DNA of 24,000 bases. It comes from Rahnella laticis (GTDB taxonomy: Bacteria; Pseudomonadota; Gammaproteobacteria; Enterobacterales; Enterobacteriaceae). Positions 1,850-12,025 of this stretch are shown here, piece by piece. The DNA lies in contig NZ_JADOBI010000015.1 of the NCBI RefSeq assembly GCF_015644585.1, positions 101,751-125,750 on the forward strand. Direction: 5' to 3'. A model generated the notes under the pieces. That model was given only the letters and a program-made list of their open reading frames with translations, was not told where the DNA came from and made no database searches. The position numbers and the translations under genes are program-made. Within the stretch, counting starts at the first letter, position 1. Every line of letters starts with the position of its first letter.

Positions 1850-2284
1850 TTATTTTTTCATGACGGGCTGTATAAATCCCCCTGAATCAACCAAGAAGCT
1901 AAATAACTCAAATTTGTTGTTTGTTTTGTTTTTTTTATAAGCAAATTCTTCGGCCAAAATATATTTTTTGTACTCGGAAATATAAGTTATTTTAATCAAG
2001 GAATTGTCCTTCTCTAGACTGTATAGGACTCTTGATTTTTCATATGGCCCTAACATTTTCTTCTTTTCCTTCATGAGGATGATAAAGTTCCCTTCAGGCA
2101 TTGCATTTTTGAAATCATTTGACGTCTCTGCATACATTTCCTTTAGGTTATTATCATTGTACTCTGCTTGAAACGTTTTTATTTCAAGTTGTACTTCTTG
2201 CATGTTTTTACTATCACAGGCTGCGATTGTAAAAATCATGACGATCAATATAAAGTATTTGATACAGCTATTATAAATTATCAT
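1850..2284 (-). CDS. small lipoprotein, candidate cognate immunity protein for the Rhs C-terminal toxin
   Basis: ATG at 2284 has AGGA 8-11 nt upstream and lies 7 nt after the rhs stop. The track's GTG at 2305 is an alternative start that would overlap rhs. The N-terminus MIIYNSCIKYFILIVMIFTIAAC has one Lys, a hydrophobic core and lipobox I-A-A-C, with Asp at +2. The gene is very AT-rich (roughly one third G+C by eye) compared with its neighbours. Its position directly 3' of an rhs tip is the usual immunity-gene position. Confidence 0.7.
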   Translation of the reverse strand: MIIYNSCIKYFILIVMIFTIAACDSKNMQEVQLEIKTFQAEYNDNNLKEMYAETSNDFKNAMPEGNFIILMKEKKKMLGPYEKSRVLYSLEKDNSLIKITYISEYKKYILAEEFAYKKNKTNNKFELFSFLVDSGGFIQPVMKK

Positions 2285-2291
2285 GACTATC

Positions 2292-5200
2292 CTAGTCGAA
2301 AGCACATTTAGTTGATTGGTGGCAGGTGATTTTCCCTACAAATGCACCGGCACCTGGCCCTGCTCCAAGCGAGCCAGATTTGTTCCCTGCACTATCTTTC
2401 ATTGCTGTTATCCCAAATTTACCCAACCAGCCTCCGGCACCTCCCCAACCCTCGAGATCGCTTTCTCCGGAAGATACGCTTCCTCCTGATATAGTTCCTG
2501 TAAATGCGCCTCCGGCCGCAATTCCAATTCCTTCATGTTCGCAAAGTGAACGATAGGTACATAGATCCACGCCGATTGGAGACCCTACATTTGTTCCAGC
2601 AGCTAAGCCATATGAATCGTTCCCACCCATAAAGAAATCAAGTGCGTATGACAAATCTACAGAGATAGAACCAGACATTGGTGCATAGTAAGGTCCGGAT
2701 ATCGCTAATAGCGCACCTTCACGATCACTTTCTGACAAATAACGACCAGCTGATTCTGCCGCCTGACCAGTTTGCGATATACCAATTCCAAAGCCTTTTA
2801 GTCCCAAGGCATCGATGTATTGAACAGGATTATTAATGTATATGTATCTATTCCACCCCCCTCTCAACCCAATCGGATCCTGCGTAATATACCGTCCCTG
2901 CGCCGGGTCATAATAACGGTGGCGGTTGTAATGCAGCCCCGATTCCTCGTCGTAATGCTGGCCCTGCATTCTTATGGGCTGGCGCAGTTTGTACGGGTTG
3001 AAAATATCTACCGCGTTGCCCCAGACGTCTAAAATCGCGTCCCATTCCACCTTGCCGGTTTTGTGATTAATCAGCGCCACCGGCGTGCCGAGGTGGTCGC
3101 AGTGGTACAGGTGCAGTTTGAGTTCACCGGCTTCCGGCAGCGGTTCGAGCCATGGCGCGAGATTTTCGGTTTTCAGGCCCACGGAGGCCAGCCACTGCAG
3201 GTGCGCGTCGCTGACGTCGTTCCGGCGGATTTCCTTTTCGATATCATTAAAGCGCTGATGGATGTCGCCGGGGAACGGGCTGCCGGCGTCTTCCTCGAGC
3301 TTTTCCGCCAGCGTGCGGTGGCTGTCTTCCATCCGGGCGTGCTCCGCGCGCAGCAGCGGGACGAAGCTGCCCGGGTGATAAATGGTGTGCAGCTGGGTGT
3401 CGCGGTTCTCGGTCAGCACCAGCCTGTCGCCGTCCCAGCCGAACCAGGTATTCTGCGTTTGTACTTCGCCGGATTGCGGGTTTATCTGGCTGACGTGTTT
3501 GCCCACCCGCCGCCCGAGCGGGTCGTAGATGTAACGTGCCCGCATCAGCGTCTGTCCGTCCTCTTCCGTTGTCAGGCGCGTCAGTCGGTGCGCCTGGTCA
3601 TAGGCCAAATGGCTGATGGCCCCGCCGTTCTGCGGGGTGTGCATCCGGCCCGCGTGGAACGGATGCTTTTCGGTCAGGTTGCCGAATTTATCGTATTCAT
3701 AAAGGTAACATTCATCGCGCTGTACGCGGTTGTGGTACCAGACCGGCCGTGCGTCTTCCGGCGGCACGTTCAGGTCATGGTGCGTGACGCTGCGGTTGCC
3801 GGCGGGGTCGGTCAGGGTGGCGAGAAAGCCGTCGGGGGAGCTGACGCTTTGAAGCCGTCCGGCCGGCGTATAAGCATAGTGATGGTCGCCAAGGCCGGTG
3901 GTCATCTTCGTCATCTGCCCGGCGGTATTGTAATGATAATCGCGCATCAGGTTCGGGTGGCCGACGTCGGGCGTCTTCTGGCCGGCGAGCTGTCCGGTCA
4001 GGGAGTAGGCGTTTTCGCTCTGCCAGTTATCGCTGAACCGGCGGGTGGTTTCGCGGTGCAGCCTGTCGCGGCTGAGTTCGAGCACCACGTCGTGCCCGAG
4101 CTTCACGCCCAGCAGGTGGCCGGGGCCGTAGGTCTGCCAGTGGATTTCCGGCAGGCCGTCGTAGCGGGCCGAGACCTCGAACCCGCGCGGGTCGAACTGG
4201 TGGCGGACGGTGTGCTGCCACAGCAAATCGCCGTGCGCGTTGCGGATAATCTGCCGCTCGCCGGTCAGGCTATCGTTGTCGTCGTACTGGAAGCGCACGG
4301 TGACCAGATGGGTTTCGCTGCGGTGGGCGGTTTCGTTGACGCGCCCGGCGGCGTCGTACTGCCACAGCACCTCGTCCGGACCATCGTCCGTGTCCGGGCG
4401 CTGCTGGCGGATAAGCTGGCCGTCTTCATCGTAGTGCCAGTGCGTAATCAGCCCGGCGTCGTCGCTGCGGATAAGCCGTCCTGATAAGTCGTACAGATAG
4501 TTTTGCACGCGCCCGTCAAAGCCGGTTTCCTGTATCAGGCGGTCCATGACGTCGTAGGCAAAATGCGTTTCTGCGCCGTTTTCATTAACCAGCCGCACCA
4601 GTCTGCCCGCGCTGTCAAATCCGGTCTGCCGAGTGAGCCCGCCTTCGGTCTGCGAGGTCGGGTTGCCGCGCTCATCGTAAGTCTGCGTGGACTGCGTGCC
4701 GTCGGGGCGGGTGACGGTGATGACGTCGCCCGCGGCGTTGTATTCCTCGTGGGTTCTTGCCCCGCTGGCATCTTCGCGAACAATCCGTCTGCCGCGCGCG
4801 TCGTACGCAAAGCGGGTCTTCATCCCTTCTTCGTGCAGGATTTCCACCGGCTGGCCGTCGCGGTTATAGCGGTAAACTGTTTTGAAACCGGAACAGTCGG
4901 TAAAACTTTCCAGCAGCCCCGATGCGTTCCACTCCAGCGTTTGCCGTCCGCCTGCCGCGTCTTCGGTGGCGCAGGGCTGCGCACTCTTGTCGCCGGCGTA
5001 GTGGTAGCGGCGGGTCTGGTTCAGGGCGTCGGTCTCAGCCGTAAGGCGGCCTGAAGAATCGTAGTCTTTACGTATCTGACGTCCGTCGGGCGCGGTGGCC
5101 GTAATCAGCTGCCCGGCGCGGTTATAGCTGAACCGGCTGCGCTTTTCGCCGCCGGGGTGGACGATTTCGGTCAGGTCGCCGCTGGCCGGGTTGAGATGAA

Positions 5201-6473
5201 ACCCGGTGGTGCGCCCGGCGGTATCAGTCTGCGAGGTCAGCCCGCCGCGGCTGTCGAAGGTGCTTTGTACATAACTGCCGTCGGCGTTGTCGAGCCTGAC
5301 CACGCGCCGCAACCCTTTCTCGCCCTCAAAATGATACACGCGCAGCCGCCCGAGGCTGTCGGTGACGCGGGTCTGGTGCGTACTGTATTCAAACTGATAG
5401 TTCAGGCCGCCCGGGTTCACCTGCGAAACAACCCTGCCGGACGCGTCGTACACGTAGCGCGTGGCCGGACGTCCGGCGTAGCGGTGCGCGACCATCAGGC
5501 CGGTGCCGGCTGGTTCCGGATGCCAGTCAAACTGGCGGACAATTTCACCGGCGCGGTCGTACACGGTTTTCAGCTCGCCGCGCGGGGTGTAGTCATAGCG
5601 GGCCAGCGGTTTTGACGGCAAATCCGGAAACGCCGCATCCTTCGTCAGCCAGACGACGGAAAGCCGCACGCCACAGTCAGAACCCCAGGCTGTATTCAGA
5701 ACGGGTCTGAAATCCCGCAGCGTGACTAATTCAAGGCGGAAACGCCGCCCGCAGCTGTCGGTGACGCCGGTAATCTGCCCGGCGAACTCGCCTTCTTCAT
5801 CGCGGTGATAGTTAAGCTGATTGCCGAAACGGTCGGACAAACCCAAAAGCACACGCGACGATGGCAATGGCCGCGGCAGCACGTCTTCAGCGGTTGCGGG
5901 TAACTGCACGCAGCCCAAAATCCACCAGGGTCCGGTGGCGTCGTTGGCCACAAAATAATAGTGCGGGCTGTTGCGCAGAGCTTCCGGCAACGCCCGCCAG
6001 AGCGGACTGAGCGGATGGTTTTCAGGTTGTTTATCCACGCCGCCGCGCGCCAGCCAGAGTTTTTCGCTGTGGCTGAAGGCAATCTGGCCGGGCGGAAGCA
6101 GGTGGAAATGAATGCTGCGCCCGGCATTGTCGTTAAGGATAAGTTCGTCTGCACGGATTTGCAGGCGGATATCCGCCGCCGCCGACCAGCCCGGGCCGAA
6201 CATGCCGACCGGCGCGGGCGTGTCCGTTTTATAGCTGCTGTAAGAACGCGATAGCGCAAAGGGCAGCGGCGCGGGCAGCGCGATATCGGTCTCGCCGGGC
6301 AGAACTTTGGCGCCGAGGGACGGGTTCACGGGGCTGCCTTCCAGCACGCCGCCGGGGCAAACCGAGCAGGCGACGCCCGTAGGTGCGCCAATCATCACGC
6401 CGAGCGAGCCCTGAACAATCGGGCCGCCAATGGCGGTTTTATCGAACTGCCGGGCAGCGGGAAATCCGGTCAT
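2292..6473 (-). CDS. Rhs family polymorphic toxin (PAAR-like N-terminus, YD-repeat shell, variable C-terminal toxin tip)
   Basis: Intact 1393-aa ORF. The N-terminus MTGFPAARQFD..GGPIVQGS..IGAPTGVACSVCPGG..NP.LGAKVLPGETDIALP..LPF.LSRSYSSY closely parallels E. coli/Enterobacter RhsA-type N-termini as I recall them. Many YD repeats are present (YVYDASGRVV, YDSSGRLT, YNRDGQPV, YDARGRRI, YDERGNPT, YLYDLSGRLI, YDAAGRVN, YEYDKFGNLT, YIYDPLGRRV). The core ends RYYDPAQGRYITQDPIGL-x17-DALGL. The core is G+C-rich, as is classic for rhs. Confidence 0.96.
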   Translation of the reverse strand: MTGFPAARQFDKTAIGGPIVQGSLGVMIGAPTGVACSVCPGGVLEGSPVNPSLGAKVLPGETDIALPAPLPFALSRSYSSYKTDTPAPVGMFGPGWSAAADIRLQIRADELILNDNAGRSIHFHLLPPGQIAFSHSEKLWLARGGVDKQPENHPLSPLWRALPEALRNSPHYYFVANDATGPWWILGCVQLPATAEDVLPRPLPSSRVLLGLSDRFGNQLNYHRDEEGEFAGQITGVTDSCGRRFRLELVTLRDFRPVLNTAWGSDCGVRLSVVWLTKDAAFPDLPSKPLARYDYTPRGELKTVYDRAGEIVRQFDWHPEPAGTGLMVAHRYAGRPATRYVYDASGRVVSQVNPGGLNYQFEYSTHQTRVTDSLGRLRVYHFEGEKGLRRVVRLDNADGSYVQSTFDSRGGLTSQTDTAGRTTGFHLNPASGDLTEIVHPGGEKRSRFSYNRAGQLITATAPDGRQIRKDYDSSGRLTAETDALNQTRRYHYAGDKSAQPCATEDAAGGRQTLEWNASGLLESFTDCSGFKTVYRYNRDGQPVEILHEEGMKTRFAYDARGRRIVREDASGARTHEEYNAAGDVITVTRPDGTQSTQTYDERGNPTSQTEGGLTRQTGFDSAGRLVRLVNENGAETHFAYDVMDRLIQETGFDGRVQNYLYDLSGRLIRSDDAGLITHWHYDEDGQLIRQQRPDTDDGPDEVLWQYDAAGRVNETAHRSETHLVTVRFQYDDNDSLTGERQIIRNAHGDLLWQHTVRHQFDPRGFEVSARYDGLPEIHWQTYGPGHLLGVKLGHDVVLELSRDRLHRETTRRFSDNWQSENAYSLTGQLAGQKTPDVGHPNLMRDYHYNTAGQMTKMTTGLGDHHYAYTPAGRLQSVSSPDGFLATLTDPAGNRSVTHHDLNVPPEDARPVWYHNRVQRDECYLYEYDKFGNLTEKHPFHAGRMHTPQNGGAISHLAYDQAHRLTRLTTEEDGQTLMRARYIYDPLGRRVGKHVSQINPQSGEVQTQNTWFGWDGDRLVLTENRDTQLHTIYHPGSFVPLLRAEHARMEDSHRTLAEKLEEDAGSPFPGDIHQRFNDIEKEIRRNDVSDAHLQWLASVGLKTENLAPWLEPLPEAGELKLHLYHCDHLGTPVALINHKTGKVEWDAILDVWGNAVDIFNPYKLRQPIRMQGQHYDEESGLHYNRHRYYDPAQGRYITQDPIGLRGGWNRYIYINNPVQYIDALGLKGFGIGISQTGQAAESAGRYLSESDREGALLAISGPYYAPMSGSISVDLSYALDFFMGGNDSYGLAAGTNVGSPIGVDLCTYRSLCEHEGIGIAAGGAFTGTISGGSVSSGESDLEGWGGAGGWLGKFGITAMKDSAGNKSGSLGAGPGAGAFVGKITCHQSTKCAFD
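2295..2798 (-). other. Rhs C-terminal tip (residues 1226-1393): glycine-zipper-rich domain of unassigned family, predicted released toxin
   Basis: This is the sequence after the DALGL motif (Leu codon 2799-2801). By my count 36 of 168 residues are Gly. Tandem GxxxG runs are present, along with two C-x5-C pairs. Nucleotide composition shifts away from the G+C-rich core. Confidence 0.7.
6339..6473 (-). other. PAAR-like N-terminal motif region of the Rhs protein
   Basis: A literal PAAR tetrapeptide occurs at residues 5-8, followed by GGPIVQGS..V.IG and CSVCPGG. This is the short PAAR-like head seen on enterobacterial RhsA-type proteins. The domain boundary is approximate. Confidence 0.5.
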
Positions 6474-6690: not shown

Positions 6691-7776
6691 TCAAAAATAT
6701 TTAATCAACTCACTCATCTCCTCCCAGTCCCGCGGGCTTTTCGTCAGCACTTCGCTGCCGCTTTCTGTTACCAGAACATCATCCTCAATTCTCACACCGC
6801 CCAGACCCGGAACATAAATGCCCGGTTCGATGGTGATCACCATGCCTGGTTCCAGCGGTTGCGTATTTTGCGGGCTGAGCGCGGGGGCTTCGTGGACATC
6901 CAGACCTAATCCATGCCCCAGATTGTGGCTGAAGTACTCGCCAAATCCGGCCGCAGAAATAATATCGCGCGCCACGGCATCAAGTTCCTGACAACGAATT
7001 CCCGGCCTGACGGCGTCGCGTGCGGACTGCTGAGCCAGAAGTACCGTGTCGTATAACGTTTTCAGTTCTGAACTGACGCTGCCCAGTGCGAACGTCCGTG
7101 TCATATCGGAACAGTAATGCTGAAAGACCGCGCCAAAATCAATTGTCACTAATTCACCCGCCGCGAGTTTTTTATCCGTCGGGCGCCCGTGTGGCAACGC
7201 GCCGCGCAGGCCGGAGACCACCACGGTATCAAACGATGTTTTGCTGCCACCGGCCTGACGGACCGCCATTTCTATATGATCCGCCAGCGCTTTCTCGCTG
7301 ATACCTGGCCGGATCAGCGGCTTTATAGCCTGCAAGGCGCGATCGGCAATCGCCGCCGCTTCACGGATTTTCGCGATTTCATCGGCATATTTATGCACAC
7401 GCAGAACCGATGCGTCCCAGTGTTGCAGCGGCGCGTTGCACTGGTTTTCCAGCGTTTTCCAGGCCAGATGAGACAGCGCGCTGGCATCGGCAAACAGCGT
7501 TTCATCACCGGAAATATGCTGCGCAAGAACCTCTGCCAGCGGAAGTTTTGCGGTGAGCGTGACGACTTCTGTGTTGGGATTGTTCTGCCGGCATTCCGCG
7601 CTGTAGCGGCCATCGACCAGTATCAGCAGATGGTCTGCGGTAACCAGCACGTAGCCGGACGCGCTGTAGAGATCAGCCAGCGAATATTTGCTGAATCTGT
7701 CTGTGAGTAAAACGGCGGACATGCGATGTTCTGCCATGTGCTGGCGCAGGACATTAAGGCGTTGCTGACGGCTCAT
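6691..7776 (-). CDS. M24B family Xaa-Pro aminopeptidase/dipeptidase (E. coli YpdF-like)
   Basis: 361 aa, the same length as E. coli YpdF. It has a creatinase-like N-domain plus an M24 pita-bread core with metal-ligand motifs DFGA..YCSDMTRT, HNLGHGLGLDVHE and IEPGIY.PG.GGVRIED. ATG at 7776 is preceded by GGGAGG. Confidence 0.9.
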   Translation of the reverse strand: MSRQQRLNVLRQHMAEHRMSAVLLTDRFSKYSLADLYSASGYVLVTADHLLILVDGRYSAECRQNNPNTEVVTLTAKLPLAEVLAQHISGDETLFADASALSHLAWKTLENQCNAPLQHWDASVLRVHKYADEIAKIREAAAIADRALQAIKPLIRPGISEKALADHIEMAVRQAGGSKTSFDTVVVSGLRGALPHGRPTDKKLAAGELVTIDFGAVFQHYCSDMTRTFALGSVSSELKTLYDTVLLAQQSARDAVRPGIRCQELDAVARDIISAAGFGEYFSHNLGHGLGLDVHEAPALSPQNTQPLEPGMVITIEPGIYVPGLGGVRIEDDVLVTESGSEVLTKSPRDWEEMSELIKYF

Positions 7777-7828
7777 GTTTCCTCCCGTGAGCAGAACAGG
7801 CCGCGGGTGCGCCCTGTCAGGATGGCGA

Positions 7829-9064
7829 TCAGGCGATTTCGAGTAAGCCTTTTTTGATCAGACGGTTGCGGTAGAACACGCAGGTTACGGCGATAAACAG
7901 TGAACCGCCTGCCAGACCAATCAGGTAGGCCGGAATGTTGCTGATCAGCGGCCATGCCCAGATCGCGGATTCCGGGAACCATTGCACCGCGCCGAGCGAA
8001 ACCCCCAGCAGCGCGCCGATAATGGCCCCGATCACGTACACCGGGATCACAAACCCCGGACGTTCGAGCGCAAACGGAATAGACCCTTCGGAAATCCCCA
8101 TAAAACCGAGGAAAATCGCGGTGCGGCCAATCTGGTTGAACTGGCGATCGTAAACACGCCGCCCGACCAGCCATTTGTCGATCACCGTCGACAGCCCGAG
8201 ACCGAACGAAGGAATAACGACCGCCAGACAGCGCGCGGTGATCGGCAACACTTTTTCCGTCGTAAAGCCGAGCGCCACGAATCCGGCGGCTTTGTTCACC
8301 GGACCGCCGAGATCAAACGCCGTCGCCGCTGCCAGTAAGGTTGCGTAGAAATACGTGCCCGCCGCGCCTGCGGCCTGCAAGGCTTCACGGATGAGCGTGT
8401 TCAGCCAGCCGCCAATTGGGGTTATCAGGAAAACCATCAGCAACATCGCGACAATGGCGGAAATCAGCGGGATGAAGAAGGTGGTTTTGAATGCCAGCCA
8501 GTTGTGCGGCAGTTTGATGGTGTTGTTCAGCCAGCGGACGAAATAGCCCACGACGAAGGCAATCACGATAGCACCCAGAAAGCCTGAAGCGACCGGCGCA
8601 GCGGCTGCCCATTCACCATTGATCAGAGCCGGAATAGCGACAGGTTTAATCGAGACATAACCGCCGATAAACCCGGCCGCCAGCGCGGTTTTGCCGCCGA
8701 TAGAGTTGGCGGTAAATGCCGCGAACATCGGAATAGCGAAGCCAAAAAGCGTGAAACCGAAGCTTTCCATGATGCTGGCGATTTGCAGCATCCAGACTGA
8801 ACTGCCGCTGAAGCGCCCGCTGTTGAGCGCCGCCATGATGGATTCGTCCGGCGACATTCCCAGAAAAACATAAGGAATGATTTGCGACAACGCGCCAATC
8901 AGACCGCCCATGATCAGCACCGGGATCATGTAGGAAATGCCGGTCATGATGTGTTTGCTGAATTCTTTCCAGGCATGGCTCTGGCCTTTACCCGCTGGCC
9001 CCGCAGACGGCGTGTCGGACGCCTGGCTGTGACCGGTATTAATGACTCTTTTTCTTATCGCCAC
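7829..9064 (-). CDS. PTS fructose-family EIIC component (E. coli FryC-like)
   Basis: 411-aa polytopic membrane protein. Motifs FAIPMFAAF.ANSIGGK, GGP.NKAAGFVA and FMGISEG.IPFA match fructose-subfamily IIC, and there is strong resemblance to FryC as I recall it. GTG start at 9064 has AAGGAG 6 nt upstream. Confidence 0.9.
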   Translation of the reverse strand: MAIRKRVINTGHSQASDTPSAGPAGKGQSHAWKEFSKHIMTGISYMIPVLIMGGLIGALSQIIPYVFLGMSPDESIMAALNSGRFSGSSVWMLQIASIMESFGFTLFGFAIPMFAAFTANSIGGKTALAAGFIGGYVSIKPVAIPALINGEWAAAAPVASGFLGAIVIAFVVGYFVRWLNNTIKLPHNWLAFKTTFFIPLISAIVAMLLMVFLITPIGGWLNTLIREALQAAGAAGTYFYATLLAAATAFDLGGPVNKAAGFVALGFTTEKVLPITARCLAVVIPSFGLGLSTVIDKWLVGRRVYDRQFNQIGRTAIFLGFMGISEGSIPFALERPGFVIPVYVIGAIIGALLGVSLGAVQWFPESAIWAWPLISNIPAYLIGLAGGSLFIAVTCVFYRNRLIKKGLLEIA

Positions 9065-9100
9065 GGAAAACTCCTTGCGCTTAAAAAAGCAAAAGTGGGA

Positions 9101-9421
9101 TCACTGGGCCTGATCGGCCTCAATCTCATCAATCAGGCCGCCGGCATTTTTCACTGCATCTTTCAGTTCAACTTCATACACTTCGACGCCGTTAAAACGC
9201 TCGATATTTTGCGGCGTAATGCCGGTAGCGTGGATGATGACCGTAGCCTGCGCGATATCTTCTGCCGTCAGTTCGTTCTGAATGCCGTCGGCACCCTGTG
9301 TTTCAATTTTCACGTCATAACCGCGCTGGCGGGCGGCGACTTCAATGGCTTCGGCGGCCATAAAGGTATGAGCAAGACCCATCGGGCAGGCGCACAGCGC
9401 AATCAGTTTTTTTGCAGACAT
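9101..9421 (-). CDS. PTS fructose-family EIIB component (E. coli FryB-like)
   Basis: 106 aa. The N-terminal KLIALCACPMGLAHTFMAAEA contains the phospho-cysteine loop of PTS_IIB_fruc. ATG at 9421 has GAGG upstream, and the RBS overlaps the stop of the upstream M20 gene. Confidence 0.9.
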   Translation of the reverse strand: MSAKKLIALCACPMGLAHTFMAAEAIEVAARQRGYDVKIETQGADGIQNELTAEDIAQATVIIHATGITPQNIERFNGVEVYEVELKDAVKNAGGLIDEIEADQAQ

Positions 9422-9427
9422 CGTGAA

Positions 9428-10813
9428 TTACCTCGTGTTATCGGAAGAAGCGGCGGGCAGATTTGCCAGCCGGTAAAGGGCTTCGGCGTAGATGCCGATG
9501 GCACTGATAAAACGGCTCAGGCTGCCGTATTCGTCCGCGCCGTGTGTATTGCCTGAGGAGCCGTCGGGAAATTCGCAGCCAAAAATCACCGCGTTTTGCA
9601 TTGCGCTGGCGTAACTGCCTGCGCCTGTGGTGCGCGACGGGTGGTTTGTATCGCCGGTATGACGGGTGTAAATCTCGTGCAACGTCTTCACCAGCGCGCT
9701 GTCCGGCGGATAAAGGCTGGGTGATTTGACCGGCTCAATGTTGATGTGGCTGTCAGGCCAGCTGAGGTTCCAGATCGAGAGCCGTTCAGCGATATTTTCC
9801 GGGGTCAGGTTTTCGGGATAACGGACGTTCAGCGTCAGCGACATCATCCCGTTCTTGATGTTCAGGACGACGGGAACCAGCAGGATCTGACCGCATTCTC
9901 CCGGCGTATCCAGCGCGAATTGCACGCCGCTCTGGCCGGTTTCTGGCGCGGTGATTTCGCAAAGTTGTTGTGTCCAGCGTGCGCTGAAACGCTGATGAAG
10001 CAGTTGTGCGGCACCGGCAATCGGATTCAGACAGGCTTCTGGTTTTGAGGAGTGTCCGCCGCAACCATAAAGCTGCCAGTGATTAATTTGCCCCGGCTCG
10101 GCCAGCAACGTAAAACCGTCGGGTAACGTCCAGCCGCCGGAGGAGAGCGACAATCCGTTCAGCCGGGCGACGTCCGGGATGGTGTTCAGCACGCTGCCGC
10201 AGGATACGGTCAAATCAGGCTGTTCAACCGGCGACGTCAGCCTGACCAGCAAAGAGCCTTTTTCGCCGTAAATCACCGGGAATTTTCCGTCCGGCGTGAA
10301 AGCAAAGTCAGGTTGCGGCTGCGATTCAAAATAGCGGCGAATGCAGCGGAAACCGGTCTCTTCGTTGCCGCCCGCCACCAGCCGGATGCGGCGTGAGAGA
10401 GGAAGATTCAGTTCACGCAGAATATCCAGCGCCAGCCAGGCGGCAATCATCGGGCCTTTGTCATCCACGACGCCGCGGCCAATCAGATTGTCGCCCAACC
10501 GCGAGAGCTGATACGGCGGAAAATGCCAGCCGTCACCGGCGGGAACTACGTCAGCGTGACCGAAGACATACACGATTTCCTCGCCGCTGCCGTATTCAAT
10601 ATGGACGGCGTGGTTGTCGACATTGAGCGTGTTCAGCCCGGCGTCGTCGCCGAGTTTTTGCCACCAGCTGAGCGCGTCGGCAACGCCACGGCCAAAAGGC
10701 GCATCCTGCTGCTGGCTGGCTGCGTCGAACGGCGAAGGGATCGCCACCCATTGGGCGAGTAAGGTGAGGAAATGCTGCGCCCGATCCCGGGCATGCGCTG
10801 CGAAGTCAGTCAT
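9428..10813 (-). CDS. M20 family dipeptidase (PepV/Sapep-like)
   Basis: Motifs FGHADVVPAGDGW, GRGVVDDKGP and GGNEETG are M20A metal/catalytic signatures. I prefer the ATG at 10813 (GGAGGG 9 nt upstream). The track's GTG at 10843 and the ATG at 10837 are possible alternatives. Confidence 0.88.
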   Translation of the reverse strand: MTDFAAHARDRAQHFLTLLAQWVAIPSPFDAASQQQDAPFGRGVADALSWWQKLGDDAGLNTLNVDNHAVHIEYGSGEEIVYVFGHADVVPAGDGWHFPPYQLSRLGDNLIGRGVVDDKGPMIAAWLALDILRELNLPLSRRIRLVAGGNEETGFRCIRRYFESQPQPDFAFTPDGKFPVIYGEKGSLLVRLTSPVEQPDLTVSCGSVLNTIPDVARLNGLSLSSGGWTLPDGFTLLAEPGQINHWQLYGCGGHSSKPEACLNPIAGAAQLLHQRFSARWTQQLCEITAPETGQSGVQFALDTPGECGQILLVPVVLNIKNGMMSLTLNVRYPENLTPENIAERLSIWNLSWPDSHINIEPVKSPSLYPPDSALVKTLHEIYTRHTGDTNHPSRTTGAGSYASAMQNAVIFGCEFPDGSSGNTHGADEYGSLSRFISAIGIYAEALYRLANLPAASSDNTR

Positions 10814-10926
10814 TGACGTTAACCCTCCGAAAAACATGGTCACAGCATTGGGTCTGGCGGAAAAACCGTCAAAAGGCAGGGTTCAGAATTGATAAATAAA
10901 ACGGGTAAAATTTTTCGCCGGTTTTT

Positions 10927-11949
10927 TTAAGCAGAAGCGAGAAACGCCGGAGATACCTTCAGACGCGGGTCGTCAGGCAATAATGACTCTCCGGCCAGCT
11001 GCGCATGCAGGCATTCCACTGCCCGCGTCGCCATCTCGGTATGACGTGCGGCAACCAGTGGCAAAGCCAGTTTCAGGGAATGTTCGCACTCGCCGAAACC
11101 CGTCAGTGCGATGCGCCGCGAGAACAGCCGCCACCGGGAGGTTTGCAAACCCTCGGCCAGCGCGTGATGCGCGGCCAGTAATACTGTCGGGTTGTCGCAA
11201 AGGATCGCGGAAATTTTGGGGCTTTGTTTAATGAGCTGAGTGACTGCGCGGAAGCTGTCGTCAAACGTTGCCGCGCAGGGCTGACTTAACGATGCGGAAA
11301 ACGCCAGACCGGCTTTCCCGAGCGCGAGGGAAAGGCCGCCCAGCCGCTCGGCGCGAACCAGCGAATGATTTTCCCCGCCGAGATAACCAATATTCTGATG
11401 CTGTTGTTGAAGTAACGCGTCCGCTGCCATGTGTGCGGCCAGCGCATTGTCGGGATGAATTGTCGCGAGCGGACCGGTATGGAAATGCGTGCCGACGGCG
11501 GTCAGCGCCACATGCCGCGCCGTCGCCCGCGCATGCAGGGCTTTCAGCGTATCAGGCTGTGCATTGAGTAATTTCCCGCAAACGAAAATCCCGCGCACGT
11601 CCTGCGCCAGAAGCTGCGCGGCGTGCTCCAGAAGCGTTGAGGTGTCTGCGTAGCCCGGTATAAGTGTGAAGCCGGTTTGTTGCAGCGCACGGGACAATTC
11701 GGGGAGTAAACCGGCGGCGAAAGCGCAATCCGGTGAAAGCAGAATGCCCGATCGTGTGAAAGGTGTGACTGACGGCGTGGCCGGCAAACGGTAACCGAGC
11801 TGATCGATAGCCTGATAAATGCGCTCCACCCCTTCGGGGGATATCCGTCCTTTGCCGCCGAGCACCAGCGAAACCGCCGCAACGGAAACGCCTGCCAGAC
11901 GCGCGACATCCTGCTGAGTAATTTTAGTGCGGGGTTTTTGCGCCGTCAT
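10927..11949 (-). CDS. LacI family transcriptional regulator
   Basis: N-terminal HTH ITQQDVARLAGVSVAAVSLVLGGKGRISPEGVERIYQAIDQLGYR followed by a periplasmic-binding-protein-like sugar-binding fold. ATG at 11949 is preferred over the track's TTG at 11979. The start is moderately uncertain. Confidence 0.88.
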   Translation of the reverse strand: MTAQKPRTKITQQDVARLAGVSVAAVSLVLGGKGRISPEGVERIYQAIDQLGYRLPATPSVTPFTRSGILLSPDCAFAAGLLPELSRALQQTGFTLIPGYADTSTLLEHAAQLLAQDVRGIFVCGKLLNAQPDTLKALHARATARHVALTAVGTHFHTGPLATIHPDNALAAHMAADALLQQQHQNIGYLGGENHSLVRAERLGGLSLALGKAGLAFSASLSQPCAATFDDSFRAVTQLIKQSPKISAILCDNPTVLLAAHHALAEGLQTSRWRLFSRRIALTGFGECEHSLKLALPLVAARHTEMATRAVECLHAQLAGESLLPDDPRLKVSPAFLASA

Positions 11950-12025
11950 CGTCCTGCCATTCGAATAAATTGACCGCAAAGTGTTGCAGGAGAAGGTCGG
12001 AAAAAAACGGGCTGAGATCGCAGAA

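Follow-up and report, generated by a model that had tools for sequence, protein, structure and literature searches.

A stretch of 24,000 nucleotides (nt) from Rahnella laticis (contig NZ_JADOBI010000015.1, positions 101,751 to 125,750 of the forward strand; referred to as the window, on which all coordinates are given) carries an rhs gene that ends in a Gly-rich tip and is followed by a small open reading frame (ORF). The tip and the downstream gene constitute an undescribed toxin–immunity family within the Rhs/contact-dependent inhibition (CDI) polymorphic toxins. The features of the locus are listed below; residues of the tip are numbered from the first residue after the Rhs core, and lengths are in amino acids (aa).

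2292–6473, minus strand: intact rhs gene from the ORF list, 1393 aa plus stop codon
6105–6473, minus strand: N-terminal region (residues 1–123) with the PAAR-like motif GFPAARQFDKTAIGGPIVQGS and DUF6531 (residues 46–123)
2799–5696, minus strand: YD-repeat shell and RHS core (residues ~260–1225), from the NCBIfam RHS_core alignment
2799–2879, minus strand: core-terminating DPIGL(1199)-x17-DALGL(1221); TIGR03696 Rhs_assc_core covers residues 1150–1225
2798–2295, minus strand: tip (residues 1226–1393, 168 aa), the sequence after DALGL
2670–2798, minus strand: tip residues 1–43, a variable linker or pre-toxin segment, with predicted helices at 10–20 and 23–32 and an AlphaFold2 (AF2) predicted local distance difference test score (pLDDT) of 34–54
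2295–2669, minus strand: tip residues 44–168, conserved Gly-rich toxin domain, predicted to be all-β (AF2, alignment A1)
2541–2561, minus strand: first C-x5-C pair from codon positions, C80 (2559–2561) and C86 (2541–2543), enclosing Y82 (2553–2555)
2304–2324, minus strand: second C-x5-C pair from codon positions, C159 (2322–2324) and C165 (2304–2306)
1850–2284, minus strand: putative cognate immunity gene, 144 aa, GC content 31 %, beginning 8 nt beyond the stop codon of rhs
2216–2284, minus strand: predicted lipoprotein signal peptide MIIYNSCIKYFILIVMIFT-IAAC (...FT-IAAC) with Asp at +2, from a lipobox scan

Exact look-up revealed that the 1393-aa Rhs protein is identical to WP_195816160.1 of R. 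laticis, whose annotation is generic only (‘RHS repeat-associated core domain-containing protein’). It matched the Pfam models RHS_repeat (E 7e-61 over 12 stretches), DUF6531 (1e-17) and RHS (1e-9) and the NCBIfam model TIGR01643 (E 2e-47), and scored 1322 bits against NCBIfam RHS_core over residues 260–1225, which is under the 2000-bit equivalog cutoff. The YD/RHS repeats of the shell, together with an RHS-associated core that ends in DPxGL-x(17–18)-DxxGL and is followed by a variable tip, identify it as an Rhs/YD-repeat polymorphic toxin. Its shell had Tse5 as the closest solved relative (8cp6_B, E 7e-131), and by analogy with Tse5 the DPIGL-x17-DALGL motif would be the expected site of autoproteolytic release, with the tip beginning at K1226 (PMC10684867). 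The N-terminal region contained no transmembrane segment and gave no match to the Pfam PAAR model; the label ‘PAAR-like’ refers to the sequence motif GFPAARQFDKTAIGGPIVQGS and to a resemblance to the 5-kDa PAAR-like Tse5-NT (PMC10684867). GC content steps down from ~63 % in the core (measured over 2851–6473) to 48 % in the tip and 31 % in the downstream ORF, a gradient commonly seen where an Rhs tip–immunity cassette has been swapped. Several full-length Rhs paralogues (1365, 1374, 1376 and 1380 aa) from R. laticis genomes fell in the same 90 % cluster; these presumably share the shell and carry other tips.

The tip contains 36 Gly, 21 Ser, 19 Ala, four Cys and two His residues, Gly accounting for 21 % of the tip compared with 9.5 % of the core. 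It had been described before, from the letters of the DNA, as a 168-aa Gly-rich and Ala/Ser-rich domain at 2295–2798 with 36 Gly, two His and three runs of overlapping GxxxG at about nt 2334–2531, and all of these values were reproduced by the recount, the coordinates exactly. The tip holds 13 GxxxG pairs, compared with 7.4 +/- 2.2 expected from 20,000 composition-preserving shuffles (P = 0.011), and no other G–G spacing was enriched in the same shuffles; the GxxxG enrichment is real yet modest. Fourteen members of the tip family were searched against Pfam at E values up to 10 and matched no family, the glycine-zipper families (Gly-zipper_Omp, _YMGG, _OmpA and Rick_17kDa_Anti) included. Nothing was found in NCBIfam or PADLOC, and searches of the PDB sequences, Tse5 entry included, with the single sequence and with a profile returned chance matches only (E ≥ 0.28). 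The absence of an enzyme-like motif and of any named toxin family, as asserted in the original prediction, was thus borne out in these databases.

A word-indexed homologue search with the single tip returned no homologue and, when repeated with a tip profile, two proteins only; this type of search is weak here because Gly-rich words saturate the candidate list. Exhaustive phmmer analysis of 1.84 billion cluster representatives retrieved 23 sequences at E < 1e-3, seven at E < 1e-10 and one at E < 1e-30, and in most of these members the match lay directly after the DPxGL...DxxGL end of an Rhs protein. Further members were found at six metagenomic loci, some with tandem orphan modules, by a scan run with a 4-sequence alignment, and GTDB contained one genome with a 91 %-identical tip (Rahnella sp. 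S5-11, locus L001). The family ranges over Enterobacterales, Pseudomonas and one high-GC genome with a haemagglutinin-type carrier. At locus L005 (GCA_024206515.1, JAMBPS010000007.1, 658–7116), the tip comes after 1762 aa of filamentous-haemagglutinin repeats (Fil_haemagg_2, E 5.9e-59), from which it is separated by a single in-frame stop codon. Among the possible carriers that the original prediction proposed to tabulate, Rhs proteins and this one haemagglutinin-repeat (CdiA-type) protein were found. Since the tip occurs both on Rhs ends and on a haemagglutinin-repeat carrier, it is a portable toxin module with at least two delivery scaffolds. Orphan and tandem tip modules were present at L001, L006, L010 and L012; different carriers, orphan modules and a downstream partner gene are what defines a polymorphic toxin–immunity module, and all three were observed. 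The tip domain is a real, rare and so far unnamed toxin family. No description of the family, nor of DUF4019 as an immunity family, was found in the literature searched, and when plasmid DNA was searched with the tip–immunity region, matches were confined to the conserved Rhs core end.

ORF 1850–2284 had been put forward as the immunity gene, and the comparison of loci supports it as the cognate gene, encoding an exported lipoprotein that appears to be distantly related to DUF4019/DUF3887. Homologous genes (16–47 % identity) lie 3′ of the tip at L001, L003 (Pseudomonas sp. RIT-PI-AD), L004, L006/7, L008, L010 and L011/15, the count of loci with a homologous downstream gene being eight. The window protein carries the lipobox [LVI][ASTVI][GAS]C, and a canonical lipobox was found in six of the eight immunity-type proteins compared, those of L003 and L011 having a non-canonical N-terminal signal or anchor. 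The N-terminus of the L006 lipobox protein comprises only eight residues as called, and the upstream orphan copy at L006, the eighth aligned protein, lacks any signal peptide. Asp at +2, the classical inner-membrane retention signal of lipoproteins in Enterobacterales, is found in the enterobacterial versions only (window, L001 and L010) and is not conserved at the other loci. Pfam matches to DUF4019 were obtained for five of the eight homologues (best E 2.6e-7) and to DUF3887 for four of the eight; the window protein itself reached 15.6 bits (E 0.022) against DUF4019/DUF3887, below the gathering cutoff of 26.5. The immunity profile also matched, weakly, the N-terminal region of penicillin-binding protein (PBP) 3 (7bn9, E 0.0011). 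As the immunity protein is exported and soluble, the toxin would act outside the cytoplasm.

The L001 module (NZ_JBKEZJ010000024.1, 7206–8949) occupies the same argH-adjacent site as that of the window, with 91 % identity in the tip and 90 % in the immunity gene; its rhs is an orphan 3′ remnant of ~210 aa in which a frameshift separates the end of the core from the tip. Two modules of the family stand in tandem at L010 (metagenome contig Ga0105251_10012176, 93–2203), a tip with its lipoprotein immunity gene (Asp at +2) being followed by an orphan rhs fragment with the divergent tip P0002. At L006, a DUF4019-like immunity-type ORF of 126 aa (1989–2369) is found upstream of the P0020 tip, within an array of Rhs orphans, and may be a decayed or orphan immunity gene. 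The gene downstream of the tip at L005 encodes a 72-aa Pro-rich lipoprotein that is unrelated to the DUF4019-like immunity family.

In order to model the tip, AF2 was supplied with alignment A1, which comprised 14 tip-family members with 27–49 % identity to the window tip. Strands were predicted at residues 44–55, 57–69, 77–104, 111–123, 127–135, 140–147 and 149–165, two of these seven segments being of hairpin length, and pLDDT over residues 44–165 was 76–90 in blocks of 10 residues; residues 1–43 are conserved only in part across the family. A rerun with the trimmed domain was again all-β (mean pLDDT 81.9, predicted template-modelling score 0.68; 78–82 in the five models). Invariant positions in A1 were G58, G64, C80, Y82, G90, G92, G117, G123, G149, G151 and C165, with C86, G96, G111, G147 and C159 near-invariant. 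With spacings of 2, 4 and 6, the conserved Gly residues fall on the same side of a strand; the i,i+4 spacing typical of a helix is not singled out. Over most of residues 44–165, hydrophobic residues (I/L/V/F/Y) alternate with small residues (G/S/T/A) or Asp in the per-column table, and the charges cluster in three short loops. Family-averaged hydrophobicity had a period-2 signal (z = 3.0 against permutation), whereas the signal at 100 degrees per residue, the helical period, was under the permutation mean. No segment resembling a transmembrane helix was present in the tip, the top 19-residue Kyte–Doolittle window being 1.04 with every fifth start tabulated. The domain is thus predicted by the models to be β and not helical. 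The earlier reading of the tandem GxxxG motifs as a helical, membrane-inserting zipper was not supported, in view of the two all-β AF2 predictions, the period-2 hydrophobicity, the low hydropathy maximum, the lack of a Pfam zipper match and the lack of a sequence match to any PDB chain, Tse5 included. Of the wider proposal, a membrane toxin of a new family, the undescribed family stood and an envelope target is plausible from the exported immunity protein and the disulfide-type Cys residues; its glycine-zipper rationale was not supported.

Exactly four Cys residues, arranged as two C-x5-C pairs, were present in the domain in 17 of the 18 aligned members. The exception was P0013 (242 aa, an Rhs end and tip), in which C86 and C159 are both replaced by Ser and C80 and C165 are retained. 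Cys residues six positions apart on one strand cannot pair with each other. The sums 80+165 and 86+159 both equal 245; such a register would arise from an antiparallel arrangement of strand 3 and the last strand, placed next to or facing each other and linked by two disulfide rungs, and the joint loss of C86 and C159 in P0013 is the outcome that such a pairing predicts. Disulfides C80–C165 and C86–C159 are accordingly the pairing suggested by the alignment. Conserved structural disulfides would call for folding in an oxidizing compartment, i.e. the periplasm, and the DsbA of the target cell is required for the toxicity of some incoming T6SS (type VI secretion system) effectors (PMC5792426). 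P0013 is a natural variant that bears on whether one disulfide suffices. The four conserved Cys residues, the period-2 β pattern and the lipoprotein signal of the downstream ORF were all points that the original prediction did not contain.

Foldseek comparison of the AF2 tip models with the PDB gave nothing at E < 1e-3. The only high-probability matches were Rhodococcus equi Vap proteins: the first model matched VapB (4cv7, probability 0.97, template-modelling (TM) scores 0.35/0.47, root mean square deviation (rmsd) 6.2 Å) and VapG (5aeo, probability 0.89), and the trimmed model matched VapG (probability 0.84, TM 0.36/0.41). The remaining matches were GFP-like and outer-membrane barrels with probabilities < 0.4 and TM < 0.3, and nothing with TM > 0.3 was found among viral structures (BFVD). 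No enzyme fold appeared among the Foldseek matches; neither profiles nor models produced the match to an enzymatic toxin fold that, according to the original prediction, would have refuted it. A barrel of the outer-membrane-protein type was considered and rejected, since OprF, Ail and OprG gave TM ≤ 0.28 and the C-terminus, as read from the sequence, lacks a terminal aromatic β-signal. The likeness to Vap proteins is weak and would be a fold-level resemblance at most, not family membership. True homologues of R. equi VapA (43–49 % identity over the barrel), annotated as ‘VapA/VapB family virulence-associated protein’, were encountered on enterobacterial plasmids, namely Edwardsiella tarda pEtSC002-3 (L009, 4899–5315), Pantoea sp. 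CCBC3-3-1 NZ_CP034366.1 (15552–15746) and three E. coli plasmids; no obvious toxin–immunity context was present at the one such locus inspected.

A periplasmic site of action is very probable, because the four-Cys register, the co-loss in P0013 and the exported immunity proteins all point to it. The tip probably acts non-enzymatically, as nothing but Gly, Cys and a single Tyr is invariant, each of D48, D78 and D135 is replaced in some members, and no profile or PDB match was obtained. Permeabilization of a membrane is plausible, though somewhat more doubtful than not; the lead to it is that the only high-probability structural matches were Gly-rich Vap barrels, among which VapD binds detergent and VapA permeabilizes liposomes. 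T6SS delivery, cleavage and disulfide formation are presumed steps. The delivery route has a precedent, the shell being closest to that of Tse5, itself the carrier of a pore-forming tip.

Taken as a whole, the reading favoured here, to which slightly less than an even chance is given, is that the tip is a T6SS-delivered, disulfide-stapled β toxin that permeabilizes the inner membrane non-enzymatically and is countered by the lipoprotein. The reduced, largely unfolded tip would ride in the Rhs cage on the type VI secretion spike and would be freed after DALGL in the periplasm of the target cell. Oxidation in the periplasm of the victim would then convert it into a compact, side-chain-poor (‘bald’) β-barrel or sandwich, the third and last strands of which would be stapled by C80–C165 and C86–C159. 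The oxidized tip would bind and permeabilize a membrane without enzymatic chemistry, and the membrane potential of the target would collapse; the inner membrane, attacked on its periplasmic side, is the likeliest target. In the producer, the exported, distantly DUF4019-like lipoprotein would capture the tip in the periplasm. A bolder version would make the tip the first β-structured membrane toxin of contact-dependent systems (T6SS Rhs and CdiA-type), a small glycine-‘bald’ barrel that depends on disulfides, is activated by the periplasmic oxidation machinery of the victim and makes the inner membrane leaky to protons or ions, its likeness to R. equi VapA in function and perhaps in structure being due to convergence or to a very distant relationship; this is speculative and on balance unlikely.

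Several observations weigh against the favoured reading. No T6SS gene (vgrG, hcp or tss) is present within the 24-kb window. The tip is acidic (15 D/E compared with 9 K/R), unlike many membrane-active peptides, and the AF2 alignment is shallow (14 sequences). All Foldseek matches had E ≥ 9e-3 and TM < 0.5, which leaves no confident fold match to back membrane activity, and homology to the Vap proteins was rejected because hhalign of A1 against six Vap paralogues (pVAPA1037) gave a probability of 0.1 and no Pfam match was found. Moreover, effectors that degrade peptidoglycan or lipids are just as typically paired with periplasmic lipoprotein immunity proteins.

The last point leads to the strongest of the alternatives, in which the tip is a periplasmic enzyme of an unrecognized family that cleaves, for instance, peptidoglycan, lipid II or phospholipid through Tyr82 together with D48, D78 and D135 (and H88 in some members). 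Exported lipoprotein immunity is the rule for T6SS cell-wall and lipase effectors, and small disulfide-stabilized β domains can be enzymes. Y82 does not vary, and conservation of D48, D78 and D135 extends to 11 to 15 of 14–18 members. No acidic position is invariant, however, with D48 replaced by G or E, D78 by N and D135 by E or N, and H88 occurs in only six of 14 members. With ~20 % Gly, Gly at most of the conserved positions, no enzyme family in Pfam, NCBIfam or the PDB even at E = 10 and no enzyme fold among the structural matches, an enzymatic tip is considered unlikely.

As a further alternative, the tip might kill neither by catalysis nor by permeabilization but by binding to an essential part of the envelope and blocking it (for example the β-barrel assembly machinery (BAM), Lpt, a PBP or lipid II). 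The evidence for the periplasmic side applies equally to it, the flat and conserved Gly/Ser/Thr face of a rigid disulfide-stapled β scaffold would be apt for binding, and lectin-like bacteriocins kill through BamA binding. Neither PDB profile searches nor Foldseek revealed similarity to any known binder, and the wide host range (Enterobacterales, Pseudomonas and the high-GC genome) favours a generic target such as the bilayer, although this is a weak argument; a binder is thought decidedly unlikely. The least probable explanation, judged very unlikely, is a flexible helical glycine-zipper ionophore of the Tse5-CT, Tse4 or Ssp6 type with the β prediction an artefact of the shallow alignment: the GxxxG excess with its four conserved pairs (64–68, 92–96, 147–151 and 151–155), the Tse5-like shell, the disorder of Rhs tips inside the cage (PMC10684867) and the small number of sequences given to AF2 speak for it, but hydrophobicity has period 2 and no helical period, hydropathy is low, G-x-G and G-x5-G spacings are equally conserved and fit one strand face, the Cys register and co-loss call for antiparallel strands, both AF2 runs gave five concordant models (mean pLDDT 70–82), no Pfam glycine-zipper family matched and the immunity protein is a soluble exported lipoprotein, not a membrane protein.

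The rhs gene is flanked on one side by argB/argH and on the other by genes for an M24 peptidase, a PTS EIIC, an M20 peptidase, a LacI regulator and a peroxiredoxin–glutaredoxin, beyond which lie oxyR, sthA and fabR homologues, named by reading of their translations. L001 lacks the four genes that, in the window (6691–11979), separate rhs from the peroxiredoxin gene (M24 peptidase, PTS EIIC, M20 peptidase and LacI regulator). No promoter or terminator signal exceeding chance emerged when the surroundings of the immunity gene and the region upstream of rhs were scanned. A promoter-like site, TCGACT-18-TATAAT (10/12 matches), lies at 2270–2299 on the minus strand, at the rhs stop codon, and its −10 box falls downstream of the immunity ATG at 2284; the site is probably meaningless because such sites are no commoner in the region than by chance.

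The family would give a new toxin–immunity pair for the annotation of proteins that now carry a generic RHS label only. It also cautions that a high number of GxxxG motifs in a sequence rich in Gly is not, on its own, evidence of a helical glycine zipper. To our knowledge, all membrane toxins so far described for T6SS, Rhs and CDI systems are helical; if the favoured reading is true, a disulfide-stapled Gly-rich β domain countered by a soluble lipoprotein would solve the same problem in another way, and the Vap fold would gain a second, genetically tractable setting if the tip is a β membrane toxin. The family raises the questions of whether Rhs cages can deliver cargo that must fold and oxidize in the periplasm of the victim, whether the DsbA of the target is hijacked more widely than is now known, and whether a Vap-like ‘bald’ β-barrel acts directly on membranes.

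Among known proteins, VapD is an eight-stranded barrel that comes after a disordered N-terminal segment and closes with a GxGxGxG strand; its β3 pairs with β8, and detergent binds to a ‘bald’ patch, devoid of side chains, that the glycines of this strand pair create (PMC4118825). VapA permeabilizes liposomes and collapses a pH gradient (PMC10100859). The tip is likewise a Gly-rich, predicted β domain of ~115–125 residues after a disordered N-terminal segment, and shares with the Vap proteins a C-terminal GxGxG strand. The adjacency of β3 and β8 in VapD is the one suggested for the tip by the disulfide register; the strand order of the Vap barrel is b1-b2-b3-b8-b5-b6-b7-b4, and the b3–b8 adjacency in the tip derives from the Cys register only, at TM 0.36–0.47. 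The tip differs in having no sequence or profile similarity to the Vap proteins (TM 0.36–0.47, rmsd 6–7.5 Å), which have an α-helix between β4 and β5 and no conserved Cys pairs. The Vap proteins are virulence factors of actinobacteria, secreted by the Sec route and active on the endolysosomes of the host, and are not polymorphic toxins accompanied by immunity genes.

Class II microcins (colicin V and microcin E492) are Gly/Ser/Ala-rich and act on the inner membrane from the periplasm, some having C-terminal disulfides, but they are much smaller, are exported by means of double-glycine leaders and are not Rhs-borne. Tsi5, the immunity protein of Tse5, is an integral membrane protein, whereas the Rahnella immunity protein is predicted to be an exported lipoprotein. 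Ssp6, Tse4, CdzC/D, EsxX and the CDI ionophores (EC93-type CdiA-CT) resemble the tip in being Gly-rich, GxxxG-containing, non-enzymatic, contact-delivered and depolarizing (PMC11630599). These glycine-zipper and ionophore toxins are helical and their immunity proteins are membrane proteins, the CDI ionophores being predicted five-helix bundles (PMC11630599), in contrast to the predicted β structure, disulfide-type Cys residues and soluble lipoprotein partner of the Rahnella tip. At the level of the whole system, Tse5 of Pseudomonas aeruginosa (PA2684) is the nearest analogue: in it, as in the Rahnella protein, the N-terminus of the Rhs cage is short and PAAR-like, the core closes with a DPxGL motif for autoproteolysis (presumed in the Rahnella protein), and the tip, 150–170 aa long and Gly-rich, has no enzyme motif. 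The Rahnella tip differs in matching no PDB chain at E values up to 10, the Tse5 entry included, and in being predicted all-β with two probable disulfides, whereas Tse5-CT is an integral-membrane toxin that partitions spontaneously into lipid. Rhs tips are disordered inside the cage, and the pore-forming tip of Tse5 has been proposed to reach the inner membrane from the periplasmic side (PMC10684867).

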